This document shows positions 1,321 to 40,530 of a stretch of DNA of 64,000 bases, piece after piece (within the stretch, counting starts at the first letter, position 1; each line of letters starts with the position of its first letter). The translations under genes were made by a program, and so were the position numbers. Source of the DNA: Acidobacteriota bacterium. GTDB taxonomy: Bacteria > Acidobacteriota > JBCCFW01. The notes below the pieces were generated by a model. That model saw only the letters and a program-made list of their open reading frames with translations, was not told the origin of the DNA and searched no databases. The stretch lies in the NCBI GenBank assembly GCA_039029535.1, contig JBCCFW010000004.1, positions 41,512-105,511 on the forward strand, given 5' to 3'.

Positions 1321-1334
1321 ACCGTCCGGGCCGC

Positions 1335-3271: not shown

Positions 3272-3307
3272 GAGGTGGCGCAGTTTCGGCGGGCGCCACC
3301 GTCAGTG

Positions 3308-15188: not shown

Positions 15189-15202
15189 GCAACCCGGACT
15201 CT

Positions 15203-15384
15203 TCATGAGTGTTCGTTGCGAGTGGCTAGCCGAGAAGGGCGCACGTAGCCGCGAAGCCCGTGGCTCAATCCGGTGGGAACCGCGGAATGAGAGCCGGAGG
15301 CGCACTTGATGGTGCGTTGAGGACCGAGGGGCGAGTACGCCCTTCGCAGGCAGCACATCTGGTCACGCAGCAGGAGACTCATGG
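15203..15384. repeat. copy B of the ~190-nt conserved element (candidate structured RNA), closing inverted repeat TCATGAGT...ACTCATGG
   Basis: Aligns to 1126-1320. The closing-helix change G..C to C..G is compensatory between copies. Lies in the intergenic space upstream of the AlgJ-like gene. Confidence 0.5.
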
Positions 15385-15399
15385 AGTGTCCGGGTTTCG

Positions 15400-20800: not shown

Positions 20801-21068
20801 CGACCGAGGTCTCGGTGATGCCCGAGATCCGGCAGTCGTGGTTGTACATCCACGGGGTCTCGCCGGCGTGGACCGTGTAGCTGGTCGCGCCGGGCACGGG
20901 ATCCCAGGTCAGCGTGTCCGCGACCCATCGCAGGCCGGTGACCTCACCGGGTTGGGCCTGGGCGAGGCTCGTCCCGAGGGTCAGCGCCAGGAGGAGCAGC
21001 AGGCCTCTTGAGTGAAGGGTCCGTGGTGAGCGCACGACGTCATCCCGCGAGCGCGGCGGCAGCCGCAC
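17877..21068 (-). CDS. secreted sialate O-acetylesterase-like carbohydrate esterase, paralog with expanded TSP3 repeat array
   Basis: Same architecture and GQSNMSGRG motif as 15400-17880, with about ten tandem D-x-D-x-DG...DNCP repeats. Confidence 0.7.
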   Translation of the reverse strand: MRLPPRSRDDVVRSPRTLHSRGLLLLLALTLGTSLAQAQPGEVTGLRWVADTLTWDPVPGATSYTVHAGETPWMYNHDCRISGITETSVVPPDWPRPTGFTYVLVTAVNSEGEGTLGTDSLGNPTPNLAPCIPDFDLDGIGDPDDNCPMVANADQANSDTDSFGDACDNCPTVDNEDQQNLDFDTLGSACDNCPTFSNEDQQNSDADTHGDACDNCPALDNDDQADDDVDGTGEACDNCPGLANPTQDDPDVDGLGSACDICPDDADPLQEDTDGDGTGEACDNCPGLANPMQEDPDADDVGTACDGCPDDFDPFQEDSDGDGTNEACDNCPGLSNADQADDDVDDAGNDCDNCLGLANPEQLDDDADTLGNACDNCPFASNLDQEDHNDDGIGDPCDPKTYTFEDDLIDGRPADMLSYGGLDETLLVRMVEGELAASYRSDRDGTNDQFTRVRASGHRQDTTVWLDYGPFNGRLSLEMWSDSAFRWESGAGLMLQVDDRNDLYFIERFQNQGVATPVAGPRGPDSRRLRLRLRKGAGTTSRLHVDYFIAGSWSEDEAIFDVVDDSALIGVDTAMADFSQGRRSIKRITVCPEPGPTDLTIGRHHEWSDDWKVFQRDDFDEATIPLQLQVRHAEPAFLQARVVMSDTGTVVPDHDWSDHQLDLSDPAPNGATVSFDLDRVPAGGNYDVEVQLVRSSDMALLGSDMLVELGVGDVFLCTGQSNMSGRGDMADAETPIDEVHVYHADGLWKMGQEPMDDATGEREQVAADNGGGARDAGHSPMLRFGKEVHASTGLPVGIIPSPRGGTAIWDEWQRDVDDPDSHESLYGNAMRRARDQNDPNGFAGVLWFQGESDAADNRTLEQYRDDLERLISQLRSDLSQPDLPFFIAQLATSTAVGNRQFLRIREAQLQVVERDADAYLITAIDALRFDNYHFFADSYKMLGVRFADAVREHLLGEPLDALVHLTSVQVGPGGSSVDFTFDGEVEFVDGGLDPELFRFNDDTGPTATGVTVMGGNTVRVTLSRALTLPATASYGFTQREEDDFLRDLRGTPVPCFDLRPIDP
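19886..20681 (-). repeat. tandem array of thrombospondin type-3-like Asp-rich calcium-binding repeats (coding, inside esterase paralog)
   Basis: Repeated ...(A/E)CDNCP(G/T)(L/V)(A/S)N(P/E)DQ(x)D(x)D(x)DG(x)G... units visible at protein and DNA level. Confidence 0.75.
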
Positions 21069-24455: not shown

Positions 24456-25466
24456 TCACGACGAGGTGCTGCCGATGAGGCCTCGCGTGACCTGACCGAG
24501 GAGGCTCCGTCGCTCGACCACCAGCGAGACGGTCCCCGTCATGCCCGTGGTGAGCTCCAGGCTCGCGGGCACGGGACCGAGCGACAGGTGGGCGCGGTAG
24601 TGGCCGGTCTCGTCGTCGACGCTGCTCACGGCGACGAGCGTGGCGGAGAGCGAGCCCTGGTCGAGCAGCGAGTCGGCATCGAGCCGGAGTCGGCCCTCTC
24701 CGAGCACGCGCTGGAGGAGCCCCACCTGTCGAGGCGCGATCGTCGCCGTCGCGTGGAAGACCGCGGTCGACTGGCCCTCGGCGGAGTCCGACACCAGCGC
24801 GTGCAGCAAGGTCCCCGCCGGAGCGCGGGAGCCGAAGGACAGGTGAGCGACCCGACCGGCCGTGGCCGCCGTGACGTCGAGGTGCGCGTCACCCTCGCTC
24901 ACCGCAGCATGAGGGCCGTAGCGCTCCCGCAGCAGCGCCTCGGCGCGGGCCAGCTCGAAGCCGAGGCGTCGGCGTCGAGCCTGCTGCTCGGTGCTCTCGG
25001 CCTCCAGCCAGGCGAGCTCGGCTCGTGCGGCGTGCAGGCGAGCCAGTGCTTCGGAGAGCTCGGCTGATCGAAGCCGAAGCAGCGGCTGGCCGAGGTCGAC
25101 GCGGTCTCCGATGACGACGTGTCGTGCGTCGATCACGACGTCCTCGAAGAGCGAGTAGCGGTGCTCTCCCTCCACGCGGACGAGCTCGACGGGGAGCTCG
25201 ACCGTCCAGTCGAGGGGGATGAGGGAGCCACCGGCGACCAGCGCCACGGCGAGGAGCAGGCCCAGGCGGAGGGCGACGCGTCGGGCGCCCTGCGTGACGT
25301 CGAGGAGAGGGGAGTCCTCCTCGCGGTAGAGCTCGGTCGACTGGAGCGCGGTGAGCTCTCCCTCGGGTCGGACCTCGCCCGGAGGCGGCGGCCCCTTGCG
25401 GAGTCGGTCCGTGAGATCGACGACGGTCGATCCGGTGCCGTTCGGCGGCGAGACGGGCTCAGGCAT
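24456..25466 (-). CDS. HlyD-family membrane fusion / secretion protein
   Basis: Start at the internal ATG at 25466 (MPEPVSPP...), which overlaps the ABC-transporter TGA (ATGCCTGA). TM segment followed by a coiled-coil. The ORF-track N-terminus is an out-of-frame low-complexity artefact. Confidence 0.65.
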   Translation of the reverse strand: MPEPVSPPNGTGSTVVDLTDRLRKGPPPPGEVRPEGELTALQSTELYREEDSPLLDVTQGARRVALRLGLLLAVALVAGGSLIPLDWTVELPVELVRVEGEHRYSLFEDVVIDARHVVIGDRVDLGQPLLRLRSAELSEALARLHAARAELAWLEAESTEQQARRRRLGFELARAEALLRERYGPHAAVSEGDAHLDVTAATAGRVAHLSFGSRAPAGTLLHALVSDSAEGQSTAVFHATATIAPRQVGLLQRVLGEGRLRLDADSLLDQGSLSATLVAVSSVDDETGHYRAHLSLGPVPASLELTTGMTGTVSLVVERRSLLGQVTRGLIGSTSS

Positions 25467-27657
25467 GGGCGAGATACGCGTTGGTGAGGCTGGCATAGAT
25501 GCCGTCGTGGGAGAGGAGCTGCTCGTGAGTGCCGTCCTCGACGATGCGACCGTCGTCGAGCACGACGATGCGGTCGGCCCCGCGGACCGTGGACATGCGG
25601 TGGGCGATCGTGATGATGGTGGCCTTGGGGAAGCGCTCGTGCAGCCGGGCGGTGATCCTCTGCTCCGACTCGGTGTCCAGGACGCTGGTCGCTTCATCCA
25701 GGAGGATGATCTCCGGGTCGGTGAGGAAGAGCCTTGCGAAGGCCAGCTTCAAGCGCTGCCCGCTCGACAGGTTCCTTCCACCGTCGCTGAGGACGAAGTT
25801 GAAGCCCAGGAAGTTGCGACGCAGGAAGTCGCCGAGCTCGGCGTCCTCCATCGCCTGCTCGAGCTGCTCGAGGCTGGCGTCGGGTCTCACCTGCTGGAGG
25901 TTCGAGCGGATGGTCCCGTGGAAGATGTAGATGTCCTGCGGCAGCATCACGACCGACTGCCGGAGGAGCTGGGGGTGGTACTGCCGGAGCTCCGTGTCGC
26001 CGAGGAAGATGTTGCCCTCGTACGGATGGAGCTGGAGCAGCAGCTTGGCGAGCGTCGACTTGCCCGAGCCGTTGCGGCCCACGATGGCGAGGTGGGTGCC
26101 GGCCTCGACCTCCAGGTCGACCTCGTCGAGCACGCGGTCCGCCTCCTTCTCGGAGTAGCGGAAGGAGAGCCCCTCGATCCTCAGGTCGCCGTCCGGTCGG
26201 GTCGTGCGCTGGCTGCCGACGTCGCGAAACTCCGGCTCCTGGCCGATGAGGTCGTTCAGACGCTCGAAGGTCACGCTGAGCCCCAGCAACATCAGCCAGA
26301 GGTCGCCGAGGCTTCCCGCGCGGCTCACGACCATCATGAAGATGCTCGTGAAGGCCACGTACTGTCCGATCGTGAGCTCGCCCTGGACGGTGAGGTACGC
26401 ACCGATCCAGTACACGGAAACCTGGCTCGCCACGATCAGGCCGGACTGGAGGAGCCCGAGGCGGAGCGTGGACGTCTCCAACTCCATCGTCGAGTTCAGC
26501 GAGCGCGTGAAGAGGTGTCTCCAGTTCCAGAGACGCTGTTGCTCGATCCCGAGGATCTTGACGGTGTTGATGCCGTAGAGCGTCTCGGTGAAGCTGCCCA
26601 TCGCGTGAACGTTCGAGTGAAAGACCTTGTTTTCCAGGCTCCGAAGGCGAGGCGTGAAGACTGCCGACACGATGGTGATCACCAACACGGCCGCCAGCGC
26701 CACCGTGGCGAGGAGGGGGCTGTAGAAGAAGAGGAAGGCCGAGTAGGCGACGACCAGGAGGATGTCGAGCAGGGACTCGAGCACCGCCGGTGACAAGATG
26801 CCGGAGACCGACGACGCCTCCTGCAGGCGGTTGATGAAGTCCTCCTTCGGGTGGTCGTCGAAGTAGGACTGCCGCAGCCGCACGAAGCGATCCATGACCG
26901 CTCCGAAGAACGATCGCTCGTAGCGAGCCTTGAGCTGGATCATGAGGACGTTGCGCAGGTACTTCAGCAGGAGCTGCGTCGAGTAGACGAGGACGAGACC
27001 GAGGAGGATGGCGTGCAACAGGCGCAGGTCGTCGTCGACCAGGACTCGGTCGATGATGCCCTGGGTCATGACCGGGAGCCCGAGCCCCAGCAACTGCAGG
27101 ACGACAGTGGCGAGCAGGAGCTCGGCGAGGACCTTGCGAGCGGCGAGCAGGGGCGGCAGGTAGAACTCGCGGAGGAGACCCCACTTGCGACCACGTCGCT
27201 CCTCGATGAGCTCGAGCAGGTCGGGGTTGCGGAAGGCGTCCTCCGTCGGATCGACGGTGAACACGACGCCGTTCCAGCGAGCATGGAAACGATCCTTGCT
27301 CAGCTCATGCTCGCCGCTTCCCGGATCGATGAAGGTGATGGTGTCGTCGCCGACTCGCGTGACGACGATGAAGTGATCTCCCTGGTAGTGGGCGATGAAC
27401 GGTGCCTGCAGGTCCTGCATGCCCTCCCAGGAGGCGTGGTAACCCATGGCCTCGAAGCCGAACTTCTGAACGACTTCGGCCGCGAGGTAGAGGTTGGTGC
27501 CCTGGGCGTCGACCTGCGCGAGCTCGCGCAGCAGGTCCTGCACGTTGGTCATGCCCCAGTAGCGGAAGATCATCGCCAGGCAGGTGGTCAGACACTCGGA
27601 GCCGTCCCGCTGGAGGATCACCGGTACCGAACGTCGAGGCTTGAGCTTCGGTCTCAT
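25459..27657 (-). CDS. bacteriocin/lanthipeptide-processing ABC transporter with N-terminal C39 peptidase domain (LanT-like)
   Basis: C39 peptidase motifs QRDGSECLTTCLAM and HFIVV. Six-TM domain. Walker A GRNGSGKST, signature LSSGQRLK and Walker B ILLDEATS. ATGA overlap with the LanB gene. Confidence 0.9.
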   Translation of the reverse strand: MRPKLKPRRSVPVILQRDGSECLTTCLAMIFRYWGMTNVQDLLRELAQVDAQGTNLYLAAEVVQKFGFEAMGYHASWEGMQDLQAPFIAHYQGDHFIVVTRVGDDTITFIDPGSGEHELSKDRFHARWNGVVFTVDPTEDAFRNPDLLELIEERRGRKWGLLREFYLPPLLAARKVLAELLLATVVLQLLGLGLPVMTQGIIDRVLVDDDLRLLHAILLGLVLVYSTQLLLKYLRNVLMIQLKARYERSFFGAVMDRFVRLRQSYFDDHPKEDFINRLQEASSVSGILSPAVLESLLDILLVVAYSAFLFFYSPLLATVALAAVLVITIVSAVFTPRLRSLENKVFHSNVHAMGSFTETLYGINTVKILGIEQQRLWNWRHLFTRSLNSTMELETSTLRLGLLQSGLIVASQVSVYWIGAYLTVQGELTIGQYVAFTSIFMMVVSRAGSLGDLWLMLLGLSVTFERLNDLIGQEPEFRDVGSQRTTRPDGDLRIEGLSFRYSEKEADRVLDEVDLEVEAGTHLAIVGRNGSGKSTLAKLLLQLHPYEGNIFLGDTELRQYHPQLLRQSVVMLPQDIYIFHGTIRSNLQQVRPDASLEQLEQAMEDAELGDFLRRNFLGFNFVLSDGGRNLSSGQRLKLAFARLFLTDPEIILLDEATSVLDTESEQRITARLHERFPKATIITIAHRMSTVRGADRIVVLDDGRIVEDGTHEQLLSHDGIYASLTNAYLAHA

Positions 27658-30600
27658 GGTGCGGGTACTTCGGCGGTGACGAGTGGACGTGGTGCCTGCT
27701 CTGCGCGTGAGCGGGCGGCTCGGGAGACGTGGAGTCGATCGAGGAAGTCGTGCAAGACCAACTCGTGGGCACGCTCATGCGAGCGGACGAGACGGTTCAC
27801 GAACATGTGGAGGTAACTGACCGCCAGCTCGGTCATGGACAGGTGGCCGGCCTGCTCGTGCGCTCGCAGGCTCGGCACGATCTCGGCGAGGGCGCGCGAC
27901 CTCTCCTGGAACACGGCCATCGCATCCTTGCCCACGGTGAGCTCGGGTGCATCCAGCGCGTGCTGGACGTGCCGGCGCTCCGAGCGGTAGCGGGCCCCGA
28001 GGGGCACCCGCAACGCCCGCTCACCACCGTGCTCTCGGAGGTAACCGGCCCGCATCGAGCGGATGACGTGGTGGCGGTCCTCGATGTCAGGTAGGAGGTC
28101 TTCGAGGAGTTGCTGGATGCCGACGAGAGCGAGGCGCCAGCGCAGGTCGGCTCCCGAGCTTCCGCGGGAGAGGGCGACGAGACGCAGCACGGCGTCCGAG
28201 TCGGCATGGAAGAGCCGTTCGGACAGCTCCATCCCGTGTCGGCCACCGTAGCGTTCGAGCTCACGCTCATAGGTGTCGAGCTGCACGCGCCAGGCCAGCC
28301 CGTTCCGCAGCGGCTCGCGGAGGGCGGCGTGGAGCTGAGGGACGACGTCCGTGAGCAGGCGTCCCGGCTCACCGTGGACGCGGAGACGCACGGTGGGGTC
28401 GGGGTCCTGGAGTCGGATGAAGAACCAGCGGTCCACGACACCGTCATGCATCCAGCGTTCGACCAGAGGTCGGACGACGTCGCAGAGGAGGTCGTCGGCG
28501 CTCGCCGGCCCCGTGAAGATCCGTGCGTAGAGCCACTCGGAACCGGGAGCGAAGGTCCGCTCGCAGCCCGACAGCTCGACGCGGGGGAGCGAGGGCTCGG
28601 GTGTCGGTTCGCGACGCAGTGTCATCGGTACGAAGAGCTCGTGAACGAAGTCACCCTCCGGTCCGGTGACGGGGAGGTCGTCGAAGCCCCCCCAGTGCTC
28701 GCGAAGAACGGCTTCGTCTTCGCGCAGTAGCAAGTCGAGCAAGCTGTCGACCATCAGCTCGTTGTCGAGATCGACGAGCAGCTCGGAGTCACCACTGCCG
28801 AAGACCACGAAGCGCGGCCAGGCGTGTCGGCGACGCCACTTCGTCAACAGTCGCGGTCGCTCGTCGGGTGCGGACGTCGAGAGTCGCCGCAGGTCGTGTT
28901 GGCTCAGGCGCCAGCGAGCGAGGGAGAGAACGGTGTTCCCGAGGCACACGCGGGGCAGCGATGGCTGGGCCTCGAGCGAGCCCCAGTTCCACTGGAGCCA
29001 GCCGGCGACTCCCTGGAACTGCAGGTCGCTGAGGAAGCGATAGACACCGAGCGTGTGCGAGTCGGCAGAGTGCGCCGTGGTCAATCGAGGGACGACTTCC
29101 TTTCCGAAACGTGCCGACCGCAGGACCACGCGGTCGTCGACGACGCTCACGAGCAGGTCATCGAGCGGAATCTGATCCTGGACCGGGGCCCCGGAACGCC
29201 CGAGGAAGGGAATCTCGTGCTTCCGAAACTGCGGGCGGTGCACGACGTTGCCGTCGCGTCCCTCGGGCACGTGAACGACCTCGGCGAAGGCGGCGTCGGG
29301 GCGGAGAGCCTCCTCGCGTGCGAGGTGCTCGGCGACGTGCTCTCGCAGCGTTGCATCCCCCGTGCAGAATCGACCGAGGAGCTGGGCTCCGGACGGGCCG
29401 ACGGCCCCCTCGAACAGGAACCGGGCGTGGTCGTCCTGCCCCGAGGGAGCGAGCCGGATGCCTGCGGTGAGCGCGTCGGGGAAGGGCGGGCTCTCGGGTC
29501 GACGCAAGGCGGCGACGTCCGCGTCGCTCAGCACGAGCTCGTCCGCTCCGGAGCGTCGCCAGCGTTCGAGGATCTCGTGCAGGACGATGTCACGCGAGCC
29601 CATCTCGAGCGCCGCTCGCCCCGTGCCCGCTTCGTCATCGAGAGGCAGCCCGGCCAGTAGCGGCGAACCCGAGCTGCTCGTGGAGGAGGAGTTGCCGTAG
29701 CCGATGCCGGCCTCTTCGTCGAGCGCCTGGACCAGGGGGATCTCTCGCTCTCCGTAGCGCTCGACGAACGCGTCCCGGAAGCGGCCTAGCTCGCGATCGT
29801 GATCGAAGTCGGAGGCACCACGCAGGAACTCGAGGACGTCGGCAAGCTGGCTCGTGACGTTTTCGGAGAGCGTGGCCTCAGGTGCCGACTTGATGAGCTC
29901 GAGGTGGACGAGCGCTCGGCCGGGCGTGGGCACCGAGAGCGTTTCCAGCGTGGGCGTTAGACGGGACAGGAGCAGGCCCGGGGACGGCGTGCCGTCCCTG
30001 CCGAGCTCCCCCAGCGCGTGGTTGAGGTCGACGAGGGCCTCGTGCCAGCGTCCGCCGCCCGCGTGTTCACCGACCTGAGCGGTCAGCTCATCGAGTGAGC
30101 TAGGACCGGTCAAGCAAGGACGGAGGTCCGGGACGAGGAGCTGCTCCCTCGCCAGCTCCTCGACGTACTCTTCCGCTTCCTCCAGGTCGACGTCGGCCTC
30201 CCGTGCGAGCGAGCGCGCGAGTCGTTCTCGGGTCTCACCACCGCGCGCGTGCTCGAGCGCGGCGTCGAGGAACGGGGACGGCTCGAAACGGACGAGATGA
30301 TGGGCGCGGTTGCGGTCGCTGCCCTGGGCCTGAATGACACCGAGCTTGCCCGCGACGCGATGGAGGGTGGAGCTCGGCCGCAGCTTCGTCGTGGACACGA
30401 GCTCTGGAGCAGTGGCGAGCGCCTCGGCGATCTCCTGCACGACTGCTGCGTCGAGACGGACGTGGAGACGATGACGCGACGTCTCCGCAAGACGCAGGTT
30501 CGTTTCATCGCCGACGCGGACGACGGCGTGACCCGCGAAGAGTCCGAAGGGTGTCGCCCGCGAGGTCATGCGGGTCAGGTAGCGGACCAGCGAGCGCTCC

Positions 30601-30857
30601 ACGGCGCGACCCTGACGACTGTCCGGAGCGCGACGCCAACCTGGCAGCTCCGCGTGCAGGCTCGGCGAGGCAAGTGCGATCGCCGTGTCCACGTCTTCGC
30701 GATCGATGAACGCCGCGAGTCGATCTCGGAGCTCGCTTCGGTCGGATGAAGGAGCGTCGCCGCACCACTCCCTGAGCTCCCGGAGCGCATGTGCTGGCGT
30801 CCTCAGCACGGCGAAGCCCGAGCTTTCGAGGACGGGAGAGCGTTCCGAGGTCTTCAT
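27654..30857 (-). CDS. class I lanthipeptide dehydratase (LanB-like, glutamylation plus elimination domains)
   Basis: 1067 aa, the typical LanB size, with the N-terminal motif TPFGLFAG. ATGA overlap with the LanC gene. Confidence 0.8.
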   Translation of the reverse strand: MKTSERSPVLESSGFAVLRTPAHALRELREWCGDAPSSDRSELRDRLAAFIDREDVDTAIALASPSLHAELPGWRRAPDSRQGRAVERSLVRYLTRMTSRATPFGLFAGHAVVRVGDETNLRLAETSRHRLHVRLDAAVVQEIAEALATAPELVSTTKLRPSSTLHRVAGKLGVIQAQGSDRNRAHHLVRFEPSPFLDAALEHARGGETRERLARSLAREADVDLEEAEEYVEELAREQLLVPDLRPCLTGPSSLDELTAQVGEHAGGGRWHEALVDLNHALGELGRDGTPSPGLLLSRLTPTLETLSVPTPGRALVHLELIKSAPEATLSENVTSQLADVLEFLRGASDFDHDRELGRFRDAFVERYGEREIPLVQALDEEAGIGYGNSSSTSSSGSPLLAGLPLDDEAGTGRAALEMGSRDIVLHEILERWRRSGADELVLSDADVAALRRPESPPFPDALTAGIRLAPSGQDDHARFLFEGAVGPSGAQLLGRFCTGDATLREHVAEHLAREEALRPDAAFAEVVHVPEGRDGNVVHRPQFRKHEIPFLGRSGAPVQDQIPLDDLLVSVVDDRVVLRSARFGKEVVPRLTTAHSADSHTLGVYRFLSDLQFQGVAGWLQWNWGSLEAQPSLPRVCLGNTVLSLARWRLSQHDLRRLSTSAPDERPRLLTKWRRRHAWPRFVVFGSGDSELLVDLDNELMVDSLLDLLLREDEAVLREHWGGFDDLPVTGPEGDFVHELFVPMTLRREPTPEPSLPRVELSGCERTFAPGSEWLYARIFTGPASADDLLCDVVRPLVERWMHDGVVDRWFFIRLQDPDPTVRLRVHGEPGRLLTDVVPQLHAALREPLRNGLAWRVQLDTYERELERYGGRHGMELSERLFHADSDAVLRLVALSRGSSGADLRWRLALVGIQQLLEDLLPDIEDRHHVIRSMRAGYLREHGGERALRVPLGARYRSERRHVQHALDAPELTVGKDAMAVFQERSRALAEIVPSLRAHEQAGHLSMTELAVSYLHMFVNRLVRSHERAHELVLHDFLDRLHVSRAARSRAEQAPRPLVTAEVPAP

Positions 30858-32259: not shown

Positions 32260-32460
32260 CTAGAGCCCGAAGTCCTCGCCGGTCTCGGCCTGGCGTGCGC
32301 TACCGCATCCCCGCTTCTTGCACTTCGTGCAGCCACAGGTGCTCTTGCGCTTGCTCTTCGGGACCGCCACGCCGCCCTGCACGTCCTGCAGCTCGTCGGC
32401 GTCGAGCTGGCGGAGGGTGTCCTTGTTCAGCACGAGCTTCTTCACGTTGTTCTTGGTCAT
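32260..32460 (-). CDS. RiPP precursor peptide A (double-glycine leader; polycationic Cys/Ser/Thr-rich core)
   Basis: 66 aa: MTKNNVKKLVLNKDTLRQLDADELQDVQGG / VAVPKSKRKSTCGCTKCKKRGCGSARQAETGEDFGL. ATG at 32460 preceded by AGAGGAAG. Leader has hydrophobic residues at -4, -7, -12, -15 and ends in GG. Confidence 0.85.
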   Translation of the reverse strand: MTKNNVKKLVLNKDTLRQLDADELQDVQGGVAVPKSKRKSTCGCTKCKKRGCGSARQAETGEDFGL

Positions 32461-32550: not shown

Positions 32551-32579
32551 CCTGTACAGCTCCTCGTGCGGGACCTGAC
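32551..32579 (-). promoter_or_regulatory. conserved cis motif GTCAG-N15-CTGTACAGG, copy upstream of precursor A (about 90 nt from the ATG)
   Basis: One of four copies with identical 15-nt spacing (also 32949-32977, 36365-36393, 38731-38759). Confidence 0.5.
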
Positions 32580-32684: not shown

Positions 32685-32864
32685 TCAGGCGCCGCCGCGG
32701 CAGAACCGCGACTTGCCCTTCTGGCAGCTGCAGGTCGACTTCCGCTTGGTCCCCTTGCGCTTCGGGACCGCCTCGCCTCCCTGCACGTCCTGCAGGTCGT
32801 CGGCGTCGAGCTGGCGGAGGGTGTCCTTGTTCAGGCTGAGCTTCTTCACGTCGTTGTTGCTCAT
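32685..32864 (-). CDS. RiPP precursor peptide B (paralog of A)
   Basis: 59 aa: MSNNDVKKLSLNKDTLRQLDADDLQDVQGG / EAVPKRKGTKRKSTCSCQKGKSRFCRGGA. ATG at 32864 preceded by GAAGGAA. Leader DNA is ~90% identical to precursor A while the cores diverge. Confidence 0.85.
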   Translation of the reverse strand: MSNNDVKKLSLNKDTLRQLDADDLQDVQGGEAVPKRKGTKRKSTCSCQKGKSRFCRGGA

Positions 32865-32948: not shown

Positions 32949-32977
32949 CCTGTACAGTCAGCCGTTCGGAACCTGAC
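32949..32977 (-). promoter_or_regulatory. conserved cis motif GTCAG-N15-CTGTACAGG, copy upstream of precursor B (about 84 nt from the ATG)
   Basis: See 32551-32579. Confidence 0.5.
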
Positions 32978-32986: not shown

Positions 32987-34354
32987 TCAGGGCGTGACCG
33001 TCGCTCGGTGCTGTCCGCTTCGTGTCGCTGGCTGATCGAGGAAGCAACGAAGGAAGTACGGAGCACCATCGCGCAGCTCCCAGCGCGACGTTGGCACGCA
33101 GCGCTTCAGCTCTCGCCAGCGGCCGATGGCGAGATGCAGCGGTGCCAGCCACTCGGCGAGACGGAGGGTCTCGGCCAACTCCTCCGGTGTCGCGAACCCT
33201 CGCCAAGGCCCCAGGTAGGCTGCAAGCACTCGCGCTCGCAACTCCGGCGGCTCGCCATCGAGCAGGCCGGTGAAGGGGGTGAGGAAAGGATGGCTGAGCG
33301 TCGCGTCGGTCCAGTCGAGGATCGCGGGCTGACCATCGCGCTCGCAGAGATTGCCCAGATGAAAGTCGCCGTGCTCGAGCCCGCTGGGTCCGAGGAGTGC
33401 CAGGCGCCTACAAGCGTCGACGAGGTCTCCGCGGAGAGACGCGAACACGTCGAGCTCGGTTGCGGTGAGCCCGAATCGACCGAAGGTGACGGTCTCGGTT
33501 TCGTGCAGCAGTGAGTCGACTTGCTCTGGGAGTAGGTCGATGGCGGCTTCCGGCAGCCTGAGCGTGCGGAGCTCGTGTTCGTTCTCCAGGAGCGCGCGTT
33601 GCATCGTCGCGAGCGTGGCGGCCGCCTGGCAGGCGGCGTCTGTTCGAGAGAGTGTCGAGACGAGCGGATCGCCGAGCGAGCGTGTCAAGAACCAACCCCG
33701 GGATCGGTCATGGGCGATCAGCTCGGGAACGCGCCCGGGGCAGCGTGCGGCGAGGCAGCGGAGGAGAGCGGCCTCGCGTGTCGAGCTTGGCCCGACCATC
33801 TTGAGGTACGTGGTGCCGGCGTCGGTCTCCAACATGACGACGGCACCACCGGAGTCGGACTTGAGCGACTGAGCCTCGAGCACCGGCCGTTCCAGAGCGA
33901 CCTCGGCCCAGTCGATGGCCTCGTCCAGCCAACCTCGTCGCTGCCACGGCGCGAGGGTGACCGCTTCTCGCTCCGCCTCTTGGAGGCATTGACTCACGAC
34001 TGCGACGTGAGTTTCGTCGGCGAGATCCGCTCGAGCCAGCTCCTCCTCGGCCCACCATCGACTCTCGGCGGTGGCTCCGGTGCGGTGCCCGACGACGTGG
34101 TACACGTGGAACCGTTCGCCGGTCTGCAAGAACTCCGTTCCGGCTGCCACGACCTCCCGTGAGAACTGAGAGCGGACGCCGTGCCGTACCAGAAGCCAGT
34201 CCGTGACGTCCTGGACCTCGGGCTCGTCGTCGTTGTCGAACTCCACGGCAGGAAGGGTCCAGCCCTCACCGCTTCGGACGAGCAAGACCCTTGGCAGCGT
34301 GTCGTGGAGCAGGAGTGAGCAGAGTCGGGTGCGCCTTGCTCGCGGGCTACTCAC
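32987..34354 (-). CDS. aminoglycoside-phosphotransferase (APH)-family kinase with N-terminal ~150-aa extension
   Basis: Brenner catalytic motif HGDFHLGNL and downstream ILDWTDA (Mg-binding D). GTG start 13 nt after the JmjC stop. Confidence 0.7.
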   Translation of the reverse strand: MSSPRARRTRLCSLLLHDTLPRVLLVRSGEGWTLPAVEFDNDDEPEVQDVTDWLLVRHGVRSQFSREVVAAGTEFLQTGERFHVYHVVGHRTGATAESRWWAEEELARADLADETHVAVVSQCLQEAEREAVTLAPWQRRGWLDEAIDWAEVALERPVLEAQSLKSDSGGAVVMLETDAGTTYLKMVGPSSTREAALLRCLAARCPGRVPELIAHDRSRGWFLTRSLGDPLVSTLSRTDAACQAAATLATMQRALLENEHELRTLRLPEAAIDLLPEQVDSLLHETETVTFGRFGLTATELDVFASLRGDLVDACRRLALLGPSGLEHGDFHLGNLCERDGQPAILDWTDATLSHPFLTPFTGLLDGEPPELRARVLAAYLGPWRGFATPEELAETLRLAEWLAPLHLAIGRWRELKRCVPTSRWELRDGAPYFLRCFLDQPATRSGQHRATVTP

Positions 34355-34367: not shown

Positions 34368-35558
34368 TCAGTGAACCTGCTGGCCGGCGTCTCGCTGGAG
34401 CGCGCCTTCCTTCAGCAGGTAGGCGAGGGTGAGCTCGACGAGATCCGGCGCGACGCTCGAGCACGCCGCGCGGGCGTCCTGAGCGGTGAAGGCGCTCGGG
34501 CGGTCGACGAGCCACTGCACCAACGGGAGCAGCTCGGTGTCGACCTCGATCTCCGCCCCCGCGTTCGGACGCCTGACACGGAGCTTCCAGTTGCTTCCTC
34601 GAACGCCCTCGTCCCGCAGCGACTTCGACGCGTCTGCCGGCCAGTGGAAGCGCTCGCCCGAGACGCTGGCGCTCTGCAGCAGTGACTCGGCGTCGAGCCC
34701 ATCGACCACCCGAGCGAGATCGGGAAGCAAGGTGGCGAGCTCGCGCGCGAGCCGTGCCCGGGAGCGCTCGTCTCCGGCGAGTCCGAGGGGGTAGGCCCGC
34801 CACTCCGCCAGGTTTCCGAGGCGGCGGTCGAGCTCCTCGAGCACGACGTTCTTCCAGGTCGGAGGTTGCACGGTGAAGTTGAGCGCGAAGGACTCACCGG
34901 CGACACCGGTCTCGTGCCAGACCCCGCGAGGGAGGAACATGACGCTTCCCTCCCTCAGCTCGACGGTCTCGGAGTTGCGTGGCATCCGACGAGGGAGCGG
35001 CCGACGTGCGTGCGGTGGGCCGTGGTCGTCCGTGGCCTTCGCGTGGTAGCTCTCGGTCGGGTTCACGACGTGGTGATTCGGCGCGAGACGCCAGGTCTTG
35101 GTTCCCCTGAGCTGCACGTTGAAGTTCACGTCGAAGTCGTAGTGCATCGGCACGCCCAGGCTGCGCTTCGAGGCAAATGCCTCGATGGAGACGTGGTCTG
35201 GATGGACTCCGAGGTCGGCGGCGAGCTCGGCCCGGGGGGAGCGCAGCTCGGGCACCGCGTTCTCGACGTTCGTGATGTAGAGCGTGTCGCCGCGCTCGTA
35301 GAGGTCGCGAGCGGTCGCGGCAGGGACCTCGGTCTGGAATCCCTTGTCGCCGAAGATGGTCACGGGCTTGCGGAGTCTTCCGAGCAGGACTCCGAGGTCG
35401 CGCATGGCGGGTAGGGTCGCGAGCAACCCGAGGCGGTCGACGGCGCCGTGGCCCACGTGACTGACTTCGGGCCAGTGCTGCCGGAGGAAGTCACGCTTGG
35501 GCATGCCGAAGAGGGTCCGCAGTCCGAGCTTCTTGTCAGTCGAGCCGTCTCGTCTCAT
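34368..35558 (-). CDS. JmjC/cupin-4 family Fe(II)/2-oxoglutarate-dependent hydroxylase
   Basis: HxD...H facial triad context (VPMHYDFDVNFNVQLRGTKTWRL ... FLPRGVWHET). Start at ATG 35558 with a GGAGAAG SD. Confidence 0.65.
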   Translation of the reverse strand: MRRDGSTDKKLGLRTLFGMPKRDFLRQHWPEVSHVGHGAVDRLGLLATLPAMRDLGVLLGRLRKPVTIFGDKGFQTEVPAATARDLYERGDTLYITNVENAVPELRSPRAELAADLGVHPDHVSIEAFASKRSLGVPMHYDFDVNFNVQLRGTKTWRLAPNHHVVNPTESYHAKATDDHGPPHARRPLPRRMPRNSETVELREGSVMFLPRGVWHETGVAGESFALNFTVQPPTWKNVVLEELDRRLGNLAEWRAYPLGLAGDERSRARLARELATLLPDLARVVDGLDAESLLQSASVSGERFHWPADASKSLRDEGVRGSNWKLRVRRPNAGAEIEVDTELLPLVQWLVDRPSAFTAQDARAACSSVAPDLVELTLAYLLKEGALQRDAGQQVH

Positions 35559-35589
35559 GTCTCTTCTCCGTCGTGTGGTTCGTGGCGCT

Positions 35590-36321
35590 TCAGGACGCGA
35601 TGTCGGATTGGTCGAGGTGGATGACGCCGGCACGCGAGGCTGCGTGGCGACCGAGGTCCCGGCGGAGCTCGATGGGGTCGAAGGCGGAGCTCTGGCGACC
35701 GTCTCGCATGCCGCGAGGCCGCCGGTCCCACCAGTTGACGAGGAAGGTCACGCGGATGGAGCCGGCGACGTCACCGGGGTAGATCGCGTGATAGAGATGA
35801 CCCGGGAACACGGTGTAGTGATTCGAGCGGGGGAGCACGGCGACGCCGCGTGTCGGGCTGGGCGGCGAGAGCGTCTTGCCAGAGGGGTCACAGCCTTGAT
35901 CGACGATGAGCGTCGGGCCGCCGTTGCGACCCAGGTAGAACACGGACGCGACGAGCGGGTGCACCATCCGTCCCGTGTCTTCGAAGAGCTGTTCGTCCTT
36001 GTCGAAGTGAAAGCTCTTTCCGTCGGTCGTGTCTCGAACCTGGAACCACCACTCCGCTCCGATGCAACTCGGTCCCGGCCGCGCCAGCCGTCGAAGCCGT
36101 CGAATGGCGTGCTCGGGCAGGGTCGACGGTGCGCGGTCGAGCGGGTACCAACCACCCGCCCGTGAGAGCTCGTTCCGCGCGCCCCGGCGGAGGGTGCGAC
36201 GGACGTGCTCGGCGAAGCGGCGATACAGGGTCGACGGCAGCGCCGAGCGGAAGCAGCGCGTGCTCGTCACGTCGGCTCGGTGACGGGAGCGGGGCTTTTC
36301 GGCGAGGGCTCGTGACGACAT
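35590..36321 (-). CDS. putative Fe(II)/2-oxoglutarate oxygenase (prolyl-4-hydroxylase-like fold)
   Basis: HFDKDE (HxD), ~55 aa later HYTVFPGHLYH, then IRVTF (RxS/T-like). ATG 36321 with a GGAG SD. Confidence 0.45.
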   Translation of the reverse strand: MSSRALAEKPRSRHRADVTSTRCFRSALPSTLYRRFAEHVRRTLRRGARNELSRAGGWYPLDRAPSTLPEHAIRRLRRLARPGPSCIGAEWWFQVRDTTDGKSFHFDKDEQLFEDTGRMVHPLVASVFYLGRNGGPTLIVDQGCDPSGKTLSPPSPTRGVAVLPRSNHYTVFPGHLYHAIYPGDVAGSIRVTFLVNWWDRRPRGMRDGRQSSAFDPIELRRDLGRHAASRAGVIHLDQSDIAS

Positions 36322-36364: not shown

Positions 36365-36393
36365 CCTGTACAGCGCAGCGGTCCAGCTCTGAC
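36365..36393 (-). promoter_or_regulatory. conserved cis motif GTCAG-N15-CTGTACAGG, copy upstream of the oxygenase/JmjC/kinase unit (about 43 nt from the ATG)
   Basis: See 32551-32579. Confidence 0.5.
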
Positions 36394-36402: not shown

Positions 36403-38673
36403 TCAAGCCGACGGAGCGATGGGCATGAGCAACGCTTCGTCCCAGGTGGGCTCGTCGAGGCTGACGGCCGAGAGCAACCCGAGAACGACGCCCGAGCGTC
36501 CATCGAGCAGGCCGTTGCCGCTCAGACGTGGAGGCGTGTCGTCGGTGGGCAGGGCGAGGGTCACGGCGTGGTCGAGCCACGTTCGCGCTGCCTGCTCGAG
36601 TGAGGGGTGACCGAGGGCTCGATGCAGGCGATTGAGGGCCTGGGCGACGCCGATGGCTCCGTGGCAGGCAGAGGCCGTGTCGATGCCGGCCGACTCCGCC
36701 GAACGAGTGGCGGCGTGGAGCGCGATGTCGAGGGCGAGAATCTCCCAGCTCGACTCTCCGATCGAGCGAGCAGCCGAGAGCAGTGCGAGCGCGATCCCGA
36801 GGTCTCCCGAACACCACGATGGGCGCGACGGGGTCGGTGTCGCCCAGCCGACGAATGACGGGAATCGAGACGCCGAGCCCGGAGGAAGCTCCCGGTCGAG
36901 GAGCCACTCGATGCTCTCGAACAACAGCTCCCGTGCGGAGCCCGGTGGCTCGTCGAGCGCGCAGGCCCGGGAGAGCAGTGCGACGACGCCCGCCATCCCG
37001 TGCAGCACGCCGAGGTCGCGACGTCCCCCGCGGAAGACATGAGGTGCCTCGGGTGCGTGGCGCATGAGCGCGAGAGACCAGTCCCGCGAGCCGTTCACGA
37101 GCGAGGCCTGGTCGAGCCGCTCGATCACGTCCTCAATGAGGCTTCGTGCCGACGCACGTGACCGGCGCTCGAGGGCATGAACGCCGATCCCGACGAGCCC
37201 GCCGCGGAGATCCAACCGCCCGGTCCAAGCCTGTGAGGCGAGCGTGTCCGCGAGGGTGGCGTCGACGTCCTCCAGGCCGTCGGCTTCGTGCAGGCTCGCT
37301 TCCGAGAACCGCGAGGCGACCCACGCGACACCGGTGAAGCCGTCGTGGAGACCGATGCCCAGCGGACGCTCGGCGACTGCTTCGAGCGCGACATCGAGCC
37401 ATCGCGACGCCAGGTCGTCGTGAGCCGAGTCGATGCCGGCGCGCGCCAGCTCGAGATGGCAGAGCGCACGGCCGGCCGCACCGGTCGCCAGGGAAGCGTC
37501 GACGGACCCGGCGTCGACCGAGACGTCGGGCTCGGAGACCAGCTCGTCGGACAAGCGGGCGATCGCGTCCCAGGTCGTCTCTGCTTCCTGGCCGACGAGG
37601 AGTGGTTGCCACCCTGAGACGGGAGAGGGGCTCATCGCAGCCGGGGATGGCACGACGTCGAGCCGGGCTGCGCCGTCGCTTGGGCCTCTCGCCGTCGGTT
37701 CGAGCTCGAGCACGTGGAAGGCCCGGCAGGCGATCGGCTCGGCGCCCAGCCGCTCTGCAAGACGGAGGGTGTGTCGGTAACCGGAGAGGTGGCAGTTGGT
37801 GTCGAACCACGTGCGGGTCGCGCCTTGCTCCGCCGCACGCTCGGCGACCGCCGAAAGGAGGAGCGCGTGAATTCCCGTCCTCCTCATGTCCGGCAGGATC
37901 TCCTCGTACTCGGCGTGAACGTGCGGCCCCTTCCGGAACGCGAGCAGCACGCCGACGGCGCGGTCGTTCACGCGTGCGACGACCGAGAGGTCGCGGAGCG
38001 CGCGGTAGTCCTCGCTCAGGAGCCAGGTGCGGAAGTCGTCGCCCTTCCGGCCCAGCACGACGTGAAACAGCGACTCGAGCGAGGCGTCGGGGTCGTCCGG
38101 GAGTGGGCCGAGGCTCAGGCCGTCCGGGAGCGTTCGCCGACGGGCGATGCGCTCGCACAGCGTCGCGACGTGGGCACGGAAGTCTCCGAGGTCCACGTCG
38201 AAGCTGGCTTGCTCGAGGTCGCGGGAGAAGCCCTGCTCACGGAGGAAGGCGACGGCTCCGGGCTCCGTCGGCTGCGTCACTTCGAGAGACGTGACTCCGG
38301 CGGCCCGACCGTCCTCGCGCAGCCGCTCGAGGAGGATGCTGCCGACACCGCGCCGACGGGCGCCCTCGGCGACACGCAGCAACAGGGGCACGCGCTCGCC
38401 GACGTCGCCCCAGTAGCGAACACCGCGCGCCGCGGCGCCGACCGGTCGGCCCCCTGCTTCCGCGATGAGCAGGCCCGGCGCCCACGGGCCCAGCGGTCCG
38501 AGGTGCTCCGCGAGTTGGGCCCAGTCGGGTCGTTCCTCGAAGAGCTCCGGCAGGAGCTCTCGGAGAACGTCGGAATCGGAGCCGGTGGCTTGCCGGACTC
38601 GAATCCCCGGTTCGGCCGGTGGGATCGAGTCCGACCACGTGGTCGCTGCCTGCGTCTCGGACCTGCCCTGCAT
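36403..38673 (-). CDS. fusion protein: tandem GNAT acetyltransferase-like domains plus C-terminal LanC-like cyclase domain
   Basis: N-terminal ~330 aa with GNAT-like segments (RRRGVGSILLERL). C-terminal LanC motifs GVLHGMAGVVALL, SWCSGDLG and SACHGAIG. ATG 38673 preceded by GGAGGAAC. Confidence 0.75.
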   Translation of the reverse strand: MQGRSETQAATTWSDSIPPAEPGIRVRQATGSDSDVLRELLPELFEERPDWAQLAEHLGPLGPWAPGLLIAEAGGRPVGAAARGVRYWGDVGERVPLLLRVAEGARRRGVGSILLERLREDGRAAGVTSLEVTQPTEPGAVAFLREQGFSRDLEQASFDVDLGDFRAHVATLCERIARRRTLPDGLSLGPLPDDPDASLESLFHVVLGRKGDDFRTWLLSEDYRALRDLSVVARVNDRAVGVLLAFRKGPHVHAEYEEILPDMRRTGIHALLLSAVAERAAEQGATRTWFDTNCHLSGYRHTLRLAERLGAEPIACRAFHVLELEPTARGPSDGAARLDVVPSPAAMSPSPVSGWQPLLVGQEAETTWDAIARLSDELVSEPDVSVDAGSVDASLATGAAGRALCHLELARAGIDSAHDDLASRWLDVALEAVAERPLGIGLHDGFTGVAWVASRFSEASLHEADGLEDVDATLADTLASQAWTGRLDLRGGLVGIGVHALERRSRASARSLIEDVIERLDQASLVNGSRDWSLALMRHAPEAPHVFRGGRRDLGVLHGMAGVVALLSRACALDEPPGSARELLFESIEWLLDRELPPGSASRFPSFVGWATPTPSRPSWCSGDLGIALALLSAARSIGESSWEILALDIALHAATRSAESAGIDTASACHGAIGVAQALNRLHRALGHPSLEQAARTWLDHAVTLALPTDDTPPRLSGNGLLDGRSGVVLGLLSAVSLDEPTWDEALLMPIAPSA

Positions 38674-38730
38674 GGTTCCTCCGTCGGGAGCAGCCGCGCC
38701 AGGACGGAGCCCGGCGTTCGTCTCGCAGCG

Positions 38731-38759
38731 TCAGGACAGTGCAGGGCCAAGAACCTGAC
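38731..38759 (-). promoter_or_regulatory. conserved cis motif variant GTCAG-N15-CTGTCCTGA upstream of the GNAT-LanC gene (about 57 nt from the ATG)
   Basis: Same 15-nt spacing, and its GTCAGGTTC matches copy B. The 3' block is degenerate (CTGTCCTGA vs CTGTACAGG). Confidence 0.4.
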
Positions 38760-39117
38760 TCCAGCGTCGCGGATCCGAAATCCGCGTGCGGCACGTTCCT
38801 CTCGGAATCGTGACCACCCTCTCGGCCGGCTGACCGCGACCAAACGACGCGCGGCAATCCCGCTCAGAGGGGAAAATTCAGCCGTCTCAGCCCTTCCTGA
38901 ATTGCTGATTCACCAAATTCCAACTCTCGCTTGACCGGTCGGCTGGGTGAGCGCAATTTGTTTAGAAATTCAGTCAGGAAGGTTCAGGGGCCTGGGGCTC
39001 ACGGGGTGTTGCCAGCATCCCGACACGGACGACCCCCAACGCCGGGGGTCGTCCTGCGTCTCATGCGGACTCCCGCCCGTCGTGAGCACGCAGGATTCCG
39101 GGTCTCGAACGCAGAAA

Positions 39118-39165
39118 GACGAAAAGGGCGTGGAGTCGCCAACTCCACGCCCTTTTCATTTTTCG
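39118..39165 (-). terminator. Rho-independent terminator downstream of the Nif11-type precursor gene (bidirectional)
   Basis: 14-bp GC-rich stem AAAAGGGCGTGGAG / CTCCACGCCCTTTT with 7-nt loop. Flanked by T-tracts on both strands (TTTTCATTTTT on plus; UUUUCGUCUUUC on minus). Confidence 0.75.
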
Positions 39166-39213
39166 ATCGGCTGGTCAGCCGTTGCTCGCCTCAACGGGCG
39201 GGCAACGAGAGGA

Positions 39214-39708
39214 CTAGTTCATCCACTTGTCGAGCCAACCGGTGTCGATGCTGACCGAACCGGAGGCCGAGCCGCCGACGGTGCCGGGCTTCGTGCCGCT
39301 GACGCCGGTGTTGTTGCGGTTGGCCGCCTGGCCGGGGGCCGAGCCGCCGCCGCCCATGCCGCTGCCGACACCCATGGTGTTGCCGGCCGAGCGACGACGA
39401 ACCGCGTCGTAGACGGCGGAGGCGTCGATGGTGCCGCCACGGATGTTGCCGACCGTGCCGCCCACGCCGCCGGCGACCTGCTCGAGCATGTCGTCGGAGA
39501 GCTCTTCCGCGCTGGCCATGCGGGCCTTCAGGGCCTCACGGAGACCGGACGCGTCCTCGGCCGAGAAGGCGAAACCGTGCTTGCCAGCGACCTCGGCGAC
39601 GGAGGTGTCGACGTCCGCCGCCTCCTCGAGGGTGCGGTTCAGCTCATCCCGCAGGCCTTCGTCCTGACAGGCTTTGTTGAAGAACTCCAGGGCCTTTTCC
39701 GTGCTCAT
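39214..39708 (-). CDS. Nif11-type leader RiPP precursor peptide with Cys-free Gly/Ser/Thr-rich core
   Basis: 164 aa. Leader MSTEKALEFFNKACQDEGLRDELNRTLEEAADVDTSVAEVAGKHGFAFSAEDASGLREALKARMASAEELSDDMLEQVAGG matches the Nif11 leader family (ends LSDDMLEQVAGG). Core GTVGNIRGGTIDASAVYDAVRRRSAGNTMGVGSGMGGGGSAPGQAANRNNTGVSGTKPGTVGGSASGSVSIDTGWLDKWMN. SD GGAGGAAG. Confidence 0.8.
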   Translation of the reverse strand: MSTEKALEFFNKACQDEGLRDELNRTLEEAADVDTSVAEVAGKHGFAFSAEDASGLREALKARMASAEELSDDMLEQVAGGVGGTVGNIRGGTIDASAVYDAVRRRSAGNTMGVGSGMGGGGSAPGQAANRNNTGVSGTKPGTVGGSASGSVSIDTGWLDKWMN

Positions 39709-39888
39709 CGCGCTTCCTCCGCGGCGTGTTCCTTGGGTGGTTCGTAAACCGTGAACCAGGAGAGTACACGCTCTTCGTCACGCTGAAAAGACCTGGTCTC
39801 CAGAACGTCGTTCTTGACCGAAATCGACCACCTAGGCACCCTGAGACGGTCCTGAAGCGCCTCGAACGGGGGTCCCCTGCGCACCGGA

Positions 39889-40530
39889 TTGCTCCTCCTC
39901 ATCGGCCTGAGCCTCCTCGGCTCGACCACCCGGCCCGACCTGATCCGGGGCCGCTGCGTCCGTGTTCTCGATGGCGACAGCCTCGAGATGGAGGGCCCCA
40001 CGGGGCCCTTCACGGTGCGTCTCTCCGGCGTGGACGCCCCCGAGTGGGACCAGCCCTGGGGCCGCGCCGCCCGGGCCTGGGTCGAGGAGCTATGCGAGGG
40101 GCGGATGCTGACCCTGGACGTCGTCGACCGCGACCGGCACGGACGGCTCGTCGCGCGGGTGCGGTCGGGCCGCATCGACGTCTCCCGCAGCCTGGCCGAC
40201 GCCGGCCTGGCCTGGCACGACGAGCGGTACTCGCGCGACGGCCAGCTCCGGGACCTGGCGCGCTCGGCGCGTCGCGCCGGACGCGGGTTGTGGTCGACCT
40301 CGAAGCCGGTGGCGCCCTGGGACCATCGGGCACGTCGCTCGGCCGATGCGAGCGAGGTGGCCGAGAAGGACGCGACCACCCCGTCGGTCTTCGTTGCCAA
40401 CACGCGCAGCGGTGTCTTTCACTCCGCTTCCTGTCGGAACGCGGGCTGCCGGAACTGCCGGCGTCACTACGCCCGTCGTGCGGACGCGCTGGCTGCCGGT
40501 CATCGGCCGGCCGGCTGCTGTCGACCATGA
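39889..40530 (+). CDS. thermonuclease (staphylococcal-nuclease-like) family protein, exported
   Basis: SNase motifs VLDGDSLEM...VRLSGVDAPE. N-terminal hydrophobic segment. TTG start. Confidence 0.65.
   Translation: MLLLIGLSLLGSTTRPDLIRGRCVRVLDGDSLEMEGPTGPFTVRLSGVDAPEWDQPWGRAARAWVEELCEGRMLTLDVVDRDRHGRLVARVRSGRIDVSRSLADAGLAWHDERYSRDGQLRDLARSARRAGRGLWSTSKPVAPWDHRARRSADASEVAEKDATTPSVFVANTRSGVFHSASCRNAGCRNCRRHYARRADALAAGHRPAGCCRP

Follow-up and report, generated by a model that had tools for sequence, protein, structure and literature searches.

A Nif11-leader precursor gene with a long cysteine-free core at the edge of a class I lanthipeptide cluster from an uncultured Acidobacteriota bacterium

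Results

The precursor gene and its transcription unit

The subject of this analysis is a peptide precursor gene in a 64,000-nucleotide stretch of DNA (the window) from an uncultured Acidobacteriota bacterium (assembly GCA_039029535.1, contig JBCCFW010000004.1, positions 41,512 to 105,511 of the forward strand). The gene encodes a Nif11-type leader followed by a Gly-rich core without Cys, and it borders a class I lanthipeptide cluster that lies downstream on the same strand. We lean, with modest confidence, towards the view that it specifies a stand-alone, independently transcribed, exporter-dependent peptide of the N11P type, lanthionine-free and microcin-like, which shares only an exporter with that cluster. 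The gene and its associated features are:

39214..39708, minus strand: precursor gene, ATG start, 164 codons plus TAG stop (from the open reading frame list and translation)
39466..39708, minus strand: leader, residues 1-81, a Nif11 helical domain and a double-glycine recognition helix, ending ...LSDDMLEQVAGG
39217..39465, minus strand: core, 83 aa (residues 82-164), rich in Gly and free of Cys, containing the blocks DASAVYD..RRR, NTMG, GTVG and WL..W
39715..39720, minus strand: Shine-Dalgarno sequence GGAGGA, read from the sequence, 6 nt 5' of the precursor ATG
39725..39754, minus strand: 5'-untranslated motif TCACGGTTTACGAACCACCCAAGGAACACG, common to the region upstream of the homologue P0001 (see below)
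39114..39164, minus strand: intrinsic-terminator-like hairpin with a 19-bp stem and 23-nt arms, then UUUUCGUCUUUCU
39022..39060, minus strand: second strong hairpin (-33.6 kcal/mol, z score -5.1), inside the spacer before the GNAT-LanC gene

The open reading frame (ORF) is a genuine Nif11-leader precursor gene, which the initial annotation described correctly apart from the length of the core. The GC contents of its three codon positions (0.65/0.53/0.90) are in line with those of real genes in this 69% GC window, and a gene of the same 164 aa was called independently on the Logan contig SRR22824298_6374 (run SRR22824298). The Shine-Dalgarno sequence of its own that had been ascribed to it is present, as is a repeat that fits the bidirectional terminator: an inverted-repeat search 3' of the stop codon returned hairpin arms at 39114-39136 and 39142-39164 that fold with -36.7 kcal/mol (z score -6.45), the region 39121-39157 was scored as terminator-like, and an A-tract and a T-tract flank the hairpin on opposite sides. 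The spacer from the precursor gene to the GNAT-LanC gene is 540 bp long, with two strong hairpins in between.

The upstream neighbour of the precursor gene is a staphylococcal-nuclease homologue, and since this gene is divergent, the promoter of the precursor would have to be located in the 180-bp intergenic region (39709-39888). A simple consensus scan found no sigma-70-type promoter site in 38600-40000. The 5' untranslated region (UTR) contains a 30-nt motif, TC.CGGT.TAC.AACCACC.AA.GAA..CACG, that is found both in the window (39725-39754, minus strand) and at 144-176 of the Logan contig carrying P0001 (L001). The local alignment score of 28 is about 4 standard deviations above that of shuffled sequences (17.9 +/- 2.3, maximum 25), and the window holds no second copy even when 3 mismatches are allowed, with 0 occurrences expected. 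A 59-aa ORF at 39705-39884 (minus strand), which was called in the Logan assembly, overlaps the start of the precursor by 4 nt; since the GC content at its third codon position (GC3) is only 0.68, it is probably non-coding. Rfam gave no match anywhere in the window.

The leader and its predicted cut site

The Nif11-type double-glycine leader named in the initial annotation was supported by several searches. Pfam Nif11 (PF07862) scored 24.3 bits on residues 1-52 (E 4e-5) and so narrowly cleared its gathering score of 23.8, while the full NCBIfam model TIGR03798 (leader_Nif11) matched residues 1-81 (E 3.5e-7) with 30.4 bits, just below the cutoff of 32.3. Among 1.84 billion representative proteins, phmmer with the precursor as query returned 98 at E<=1e-3, almost all of them 85-180 aa long, aligned to residues 1-82 and ending ...L(S/T)D..L..VAGG, and the PDB entry 9zn4_A ('Nif11 domain-containing protein') aligned to residues 1-81 (E 0.0015). 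In the AlphaFold2 (AF2) model the leader forms a helical bundle (helices 2-15, 17-29, 33-43, 50-69 and 72-79) with a predicted local distance difference test score of 70-86 to about residue 60, and of about 53 and then 43 for the two blocks of residues 61-80.

As read from the sequence, the leader ends E-L(-12)-S-D-D-M-L(-7)-E-Q-V(-4)-A-G-G, that is, ...ELSDDMLEQVAGG, with its double-glycine motif in register with that of 90+ precursor-like relatives. Experiments have shown that the peptidase domain of LahT, a C39 peptidase-ABC exporter (PCAT), needs L-12, L-7, V-4 and GG, and that it takes Nif11 leaders whose cores differ greatly (PMC6363468). The predicted cut site is after Gly81 (Q-V-A-G-G / V-G-G). 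The bacteriocin_sig model TIGR01847 scored 14 bits on the precursor against a threshold of 15.7 (E 0.06). The class I leader model NF038153 (lant_leader_L1a) matched the two precursors of the lanthipeptide cluster, LanA1 and LanA2, but not the Nif11 precursor, and phmmer of the Nif11 leader against all ORFs of the window gave no match, including no similarity to the LanA leaders.

Nif11 domains are also present in proteins that are not precursors, such as the 544-aa repeat protein P0002, and this together with the TIGR03798 score just under the cutoff would fit an intracellular Nif11-domain protein with a disordered Gly-rich tail that is neither cleaved nor exported. We regard this as very improbable, since the full double-glycine motif has been kept in register with so many precursor-like relatives, the probable paralogue P0001 lies beside a secretion gene, and the layout of a hairpin after the gene is common to the precursor and P0001.

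A long core without cysteine

The core (VGGTVGNIRGGTIDASAVYDAVRRRSAGNTMGVGSGMGGGGSAPGQAANRNNTGVSGTKPGTVGGSASGSVSIDTGWLDKWMN) is 83 residues in length and not 80 as first stated; the string printed with that figure had 81, 'VG' having been omitted after AGG (VGGTVGN...). It contains 21 Gly (25%), 9 Ser and 7 Thr (19%), 0 Cys and 2 Lys, the latter at core positions 59 and 80, and its C-terminus is GWLDKWMN. The net charge is +3, the pI 10.25 and the mass 7.96 kDa. AF2 predicted it to be mostly disordered, with low confidence, apart from helices at residues 96-109 and 157-163. Comparison of the core with Pfam, NCBIfam and the PDB found no relative, and no known bacteriocin was matched.

Since there is no Cys in the 83 residues, the core cannot form lanthionines, just as the initial annotation held, and the LanC domains of the neighbouring cluster have no substrate in it. 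The implication that a Cys-free core is a rarity is, however, not borne out. Cys-free cores were found in 64 of the 95 nearest leader relatives (about two-thirds), so that in this leader clade a core without Cys is nothing out of the ordinary. The unusual trait of the core is instead its extreme length: at 83 aa it ties with the longest among the same 95 relatives, whose median is 33 aa and of which only 4 reach 60 aa.

Trp is the C-terminal residue in 19 of the 95 relatives' cores (P0003-P0098), and 24 have a Trp within the last three residues, against an expectation of 6.7% (enrichment test, binomial p ~1e-8). This enrichment may be a functional or modification signature shared by the leader clade.

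A single homologue of the core and its locus

The initial annotation had proposed a search for homologous cores and for the enzymes that flank them. Such a homologue was found, one protein of 157 aa (P0001) being the only one among the 1.84 billion representatives to share the core, while its flanking sequence, read within 998 bp, yielded an NHLP/Nif11-type HlyD gene. P0001 also has the closest leader, the full match covering residues 1-149 (E 1.2e-15, 38% identity), and it passes TIGR03798 with 45.8 bits. Core to core, BLASTP gave 41% identity over 63 aa (E 2.4e-8). The blocks DASAVYD, RRR, NTMG, GTVG and the C-terminal WL..W are kept in both proteins, P0001 ending SWLTW, as are 5 of the 16 Ser/Thr positions but no Lys position (P0001 has a Lys at position 1). 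By sequence, then, the precursor and P0001 constitute a two-member core family inside the known class of Nif11-leader double-glycine precursors.

Other searches added no further member. A word-index homologue search with the precursor had no match, a profile search with the precursor and P0001 returned only P0001 and two leader-only matches, and no relative was found in the GTDB species genomes by leader-pattern and core-pattern locus searches or in the JGI metagenomes by a core-pattern search. P0004 and P0012, which by eye resemble the core (A.Y..VR.R; GW..W), were not significant by core hidden Markov model and BLASTP. A literature search on the run and the protein accessions found no paper.

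P0001 corresponds to MEM7248063.1, encoded on a contig of 21,693 bp and named by NCBI 'MAG: Nif11-like leader peptide family RiPP precursor [Acidobacteriota bacterium]', where RiPP denotes a peptide that is made by the ribosome and modified after translation. The LanB and GNAT-LanC of the window are MEM7244049.1 and MEM7244056.1, on a 112-kb contig that bears the same label, 'Acidobacteriota bacterium'. P0001, the window LanB and the precursor are all present in run SRR22824298 and are equal in GC content and codon-position GC. Since they have the run, the organism label and the GC content in common, P0001 is probably a paralogue from the same genome as the window; the accession numbers are about 4,000 apart.

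On the 998-bp Logan contig, P0001 is followed by a hairpin and U-tract (L001 700-770; -39.1 kcal/mol, z score -2.9) and, about 100 nt further on, by a gene that matches TIGR03794 NHLM_micro_HlyD over residues 1-54 (E 8e-18). This arrangement would fit an orphan paralogue: like the scattered prochlorosin precursors, the window precursor might be served only in trans, by the NHLP/Nif11-type cassette beside P0001, its place by the lanthipeptide cluster being coincidental. In addition to P0001 having the closest leader and abutting a TIGR03794-type HlyD gene, the 5' UTR motif is common to the two genes, and the genes of Nif11 precursors are frequently distant from those of their machinery (PMC7268733, PMC2887384). 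On the other side, it depends on a shared genome that is itself only probable, the nearest PCAT is just 11.5 kb away and already handles leaders with L-12/L-7/V-4/GG, and PCAT peptidase domains are promiscuous (PMC6363468). We therefore hold this explanation to be unlikely, though deserving of some weight.

The conserved blocks also admit a bolder idea, namely that the two proteins represent a new family of long, Gly-rich, Cys-free Nif11 peptides in which the blocks are recognition or modification sites, the window copy being matured by the GNAT-LanC, a hydroxylase, the kinase or LanB. This seems to us distinctly doubtful. If it were true that the cluster enzymes mature the Nif11 peptide, one cluster would give two chemically unrelated products from two leader types. 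Linked to it is the suggestion that the C-terminal Trp of the leader clade may mark a shared target-binding or modification signature.

The neighbouring class I lanthipeptide cluster

The cluster downstream of the precursor gene comprises the following genes:

36403-38673, minus strand: GNAT-GNAT-LanC fusion (GNAT-LanC), 756 aa, immediately downstream of the precursor gene and co-oriented with it
35590-36321, minus strand: 243-aa protein without a family match
34368-35633, minus strand: JmjC/cupin protein
32987-34354, minus strand: APH-type kinase
about 32685-32864, minus strand: LanA1, matched by the class I leader model NF038153
about 32260-32460, minus strand: LanA2, matched by the class I leader model NF038153
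30854-32209, minus strand: LanC
27654-30857, minus strand: LanB
25459-27657, minus strand: PCAT, with Pfam Peptidase_C39, ABC_membrane and ABC_tran
24456-25697, minus strand: HlyD-like membrane-fusion protein with weak HlyD family matches, its ORF overlapping the end of the PCAT gene

The true start of the HlyD-like gene is probably downstream of 25697. The PCAT and HlyD genes are situated 11.5-15 kb downstream of the precursor on the same strand. PCAT residues align with the catalytic triad of PCAT1 (Cys21/His99/Asp115), and its best NCBIfam model was TIGR03796 NHLM_micro_ABC1, at 463 bits against a cutoff of 853. The leaders of LanA1 and LanA2 end ...L-D-A-D-(D/E)-L-Q-D-V-Q-G-G and so have the same L-12/L-7/V-4/GG as the Nif11 precursor, while their cores have Lys-rich N-termini and 3-4 Cys each. 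The initial annotation suggested that the GG site would fit the same C39 exporter, and this agrees with both the determinants in the leader and the alignment of the triad. The PCAT/HlyD pair is thus a candidate leader peptidase and exporter for the precursor, acting in trans.

A bipartite motif, CCTGTACAG-N15-CTGAC (GTCAG-N15-CTGTACAGG on the minus strand), has exactly 3 exact copies in the window, where 0.3 would be expected, at 32551-32579, 32949-32977 and 36365-36393, upstream of LanA2, LanA1 and the 243-aa gene, respectively. It is probably the site of a cluster-specific regulator or promoter. In keeping with the earlier observation that the precursor lacks this cis motif, there was none near the precursor gene even at 3 mismatches. 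A degenerate fourth copy at 38731-38759, upstream of GNAT-LanC, is found only at 3 mismatches, and since about 4 chance matches per window are expected at that level, it was not counted as evidence.

GNAT-LanC at full length had no homologue at E<=1e-10 among 5.8 billion proteins, the query alone being returned, and a PDB comparison of its GNAT region gave nothing at E<=0.01. At what we take to be the positions of the LanC zinc ligands it carries WCSG and CHG motifs. The 243-aa protein had no Pfam match even at E 10; by eye it resembles a 2-oxoglutarate (2OG)-Fe(II) oxygenase (FHFDKD ... GHLYHAI ... RVTFLVNWW) and is thus a putative 2OG enzyme. The combination of GNAT-LanC, the JmjC protein and Lys-rich LanA cores suggests, by analogy, that the selidamide scheme of hydroxylation followed by acylation has a class I counterpart here. 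A metagenome search with LanB returned one 4-kb contig, L004 (JGI ORMF012680253.1), with a LanB at 203-3481 (41% identity to that of the window) and, at 3712-3903, a LanA whose leader is of the same type (KKLGLKKETLRQL...QVQGG) but whose core, containing Trp and Cys, is unrelated. This pair of genes shows that the combination of leader and LanB is also present elsewhere.

The place of the precursor beside these enzymes raises the question of whether it is their second, leader-distinct substrate, giving a lanthionine-free modified RiPP from a hybrid cluster. In that case the GNAT domains of GNAT-LanC might acylate it, the JmjC-type or putative 2OG enzyme hydroxylate it, the APH-type kinase phosphorylate it and LanB dehydrate its Ser/Thr. 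The precursor gene is immediately upstream of GNAT-LanC and co-oriented with it at the edge of the cluster, and its core offers 16 Ser/Thr and 2 Lys. Furthermore, GNATs occur in about 8% of Nif11/NHLP clusters, and the precursors whose Lys or Orn they acylate belong almost without exception to the NHLP or Nif11 type; prior hydroxylation made acylation considerably more efficient in one case, and the GNAT clade in question includes Acidobacteria (PMC8784127). However, LanA1 and LanA2 already account for all of the enzymes, the Nif11 precursor has neither Cys for the LanC domain nor a class I leader motif for LanB, and its Lys and most of its Ser/Thr positions are not kept in P0001. The terminator hairpins, the 540-bp spacer and the missing cis motif likewise speak against tailoring, and the gene beside the paralogue P0001 is an exporter component. 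A tailored product is therefore improbable in our estimation, though with the gene lying next to GNAT-LanC it is the main rival reading.

On the far side of the precursor (39.9-64 kb) there were no RiPP enzymes, only housekeeping and other unrelated genes. Elsewhere in the window, 13479-21068 (minus strand) encodes large secreted proteins with thrombospondin type 3 repeats and SASA acetylesterase or AlgX-like SGNH domains; these proteins gave sub-threshold MYXO-CTERM/MtsC matches, which misleadingly point to a myxobacterium, a host that we reject given the NCBI label Acidobacteriota.

Discussion

A proposed exporter-dependent peptide without lanthionines

The initial annotation left the relation between precursor and cluster open and offered several options. 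Of these, the evidence leans to an unrelated pathway, but one with a shared exporter, since P0001 is directly upstream of an NHLP/Nif11-type HlyD gene, the leader has no class I motif, few Ser/Thr positions are conserved and no Lys position is. LanA1 and LanA2 suffice to explain every enzyme of the cluster. Furthermore, Haft et al. (2010, PMC2887384) found that no tailoring enzyme correlates with Nif11 and NHLP leaders as strongly as the transport cassette does. This correlation, together with the leader determinants and the PCAT triad, makes a sequence of transcription, translation, cutting at Gly81 and type I secretion likely.

We propose that the precursor gene is transcribed separately from the lanthipeptide cluster and that the 164-aa prepeptide is translated from its own ribosome-binding site. 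The C39 peptidase domain of a PCAT would then recognise L-12, L-7 and V-4 in the 81-residue helical leader and cut after Gly81, and the 83-residue, 8-kDa, cationic, Gly-rich and largely disordered core would leave the cell by type I secretion through PCAT and HlyD. The exporter could be the cluster's own PCAT/HlyD pair or the NHLP/Nif11-type cassette beside the paralogue P0001. The peptide would probably be independent of LanB and LanC and would act like a class II microcin or an unmodified long-leader bacteriocin. The reality of the gene, its leader family, the cut-site determinants, the hairpins and the one core homologue with its HlyD neighbour are observed; that the peptide is cleaved, exported and left unmodified, and that it serves in antagonism or signalling, is presumed from them.

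Several points weigh against this proposal. Cleavage and export are predicted from motifs and homology, and the context of P0001 is limited to 998 bp. The HlyD and PCAT of the window are not true members of the NHLM families, since their scores are below the cutoffs. The core is hydrophilic and has no hydrophobic segment, and neither an immunity-like small membrane protein nor a small ORF with coding-type GC3 was found beside the precursor gene. Finally, the gene is adjacent to and co-oriented with that of GNAT-LanC, and GNATs are frequent maturases in Nif11/NHLP clusters (PMC8784127).

Since the precursor most likely shares only the exporter of the cluster, we consider it a fairly ordinary member of its class. 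With it the large and mostly uncharacterised pool of Nif11-leader peptides gains a core family of two members from uncultured Acidobacteriota. It also provides a caveat for the automated assignment of products to clusters, as it probably makes no use of the enzymes of the cluster next to it. Should the peptide be an active unmodified 8-kDa bacteriocin, microcin-like antagonism would be extended to the Acidobacteriota; should the cluster enzymes tailor it after all, this would be a rare RiPP cluster with dual leaders and dual products.

Comparison with known systems

The closest resemblance is to the N11P precursors (TIGR03798, PF07862; PMC2887384), which likewise have an N-terminal Nif11 domain and an acidic helix ending L..-..L..V.GG, followed after the cut site by a low-complexity Gly/Ser-rich region, and which are associated with a C39 ABC exporter and HlyD and occur as paralogues. 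The present precursor differs in its TIGR03798 score, just under the cutoff (30.4 bits against 32.3), in its 83-aa core, as long as the longest among the 95 relatives, in its host, which belongs to the Acidobacteriota and not to the cyanobacteria, and in that the adjacent machinery is of class I (LanB/LanC) with short-leader precursors of its own. A phylum is also what separates it from the cyanobacterial double-glycine bacteriocin precursors (Wang, Fewer & Sivonen 2011, PMC3140520), with which no core similarity was detected. Those precursors are 28-164 aa long with Gly/Ser/Thr-rich cores, are clustered around a C39 ABC exporter and HlyD as here, and many of them were missed by annotation.

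With the class II microcins and unmodified double-glycine bacteriocins (PMC12219008, PMC10233263) the peptide would share, judging from the genes alone, a Gram-negative producer, a Gly-rich mature peptide of 5-10 kDa (here 7.96), double-glycine processing, export by PCAT and a membrane-fusion protein, and no obligatory modification. The signal of class II microcins, however, is 15-18 aa long (PMC12219008), as opposed to the 81-aa Nif11 leader here, so that the likeness does not extend to the short signal; moreover no immunity gene was seen, the core is hydrophilic and cationic, and there is no sequence similarity.

Among modified peptides, the prochlorosins likewise carry a Nif11 leader that a PCAT removes at GG, and their precursor genes are scattered, but their Cys-containing cores are cyclised by a class II enzyme (ProcM/LanM) that binds the Nif11 leader, whereas here there is no Cys and no LanM. 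Nor can the Nif11 peptide be placed with the class I lanthipeptides, as it has 0 Cys in its 83-aa core and no LanB-type class I leader. The selidamides (kamptornamide, phaeornamide, nostolysamides; PMC8784127) combine Nif11/NHLP precursors with a GNAT maturase, lanthionine machinery and sometimes an Fe/2OG hydroxylase, and the window cluster has all of these enzyme types, although its GNAT is fused to LanC and is without a detectable close homologue. Since the acylated Lys or Orn of the selidamides is at the termini of Cys-containing cores, the likeness in the window fits LanA1 and LanA2 and not the Nif11 peptide.

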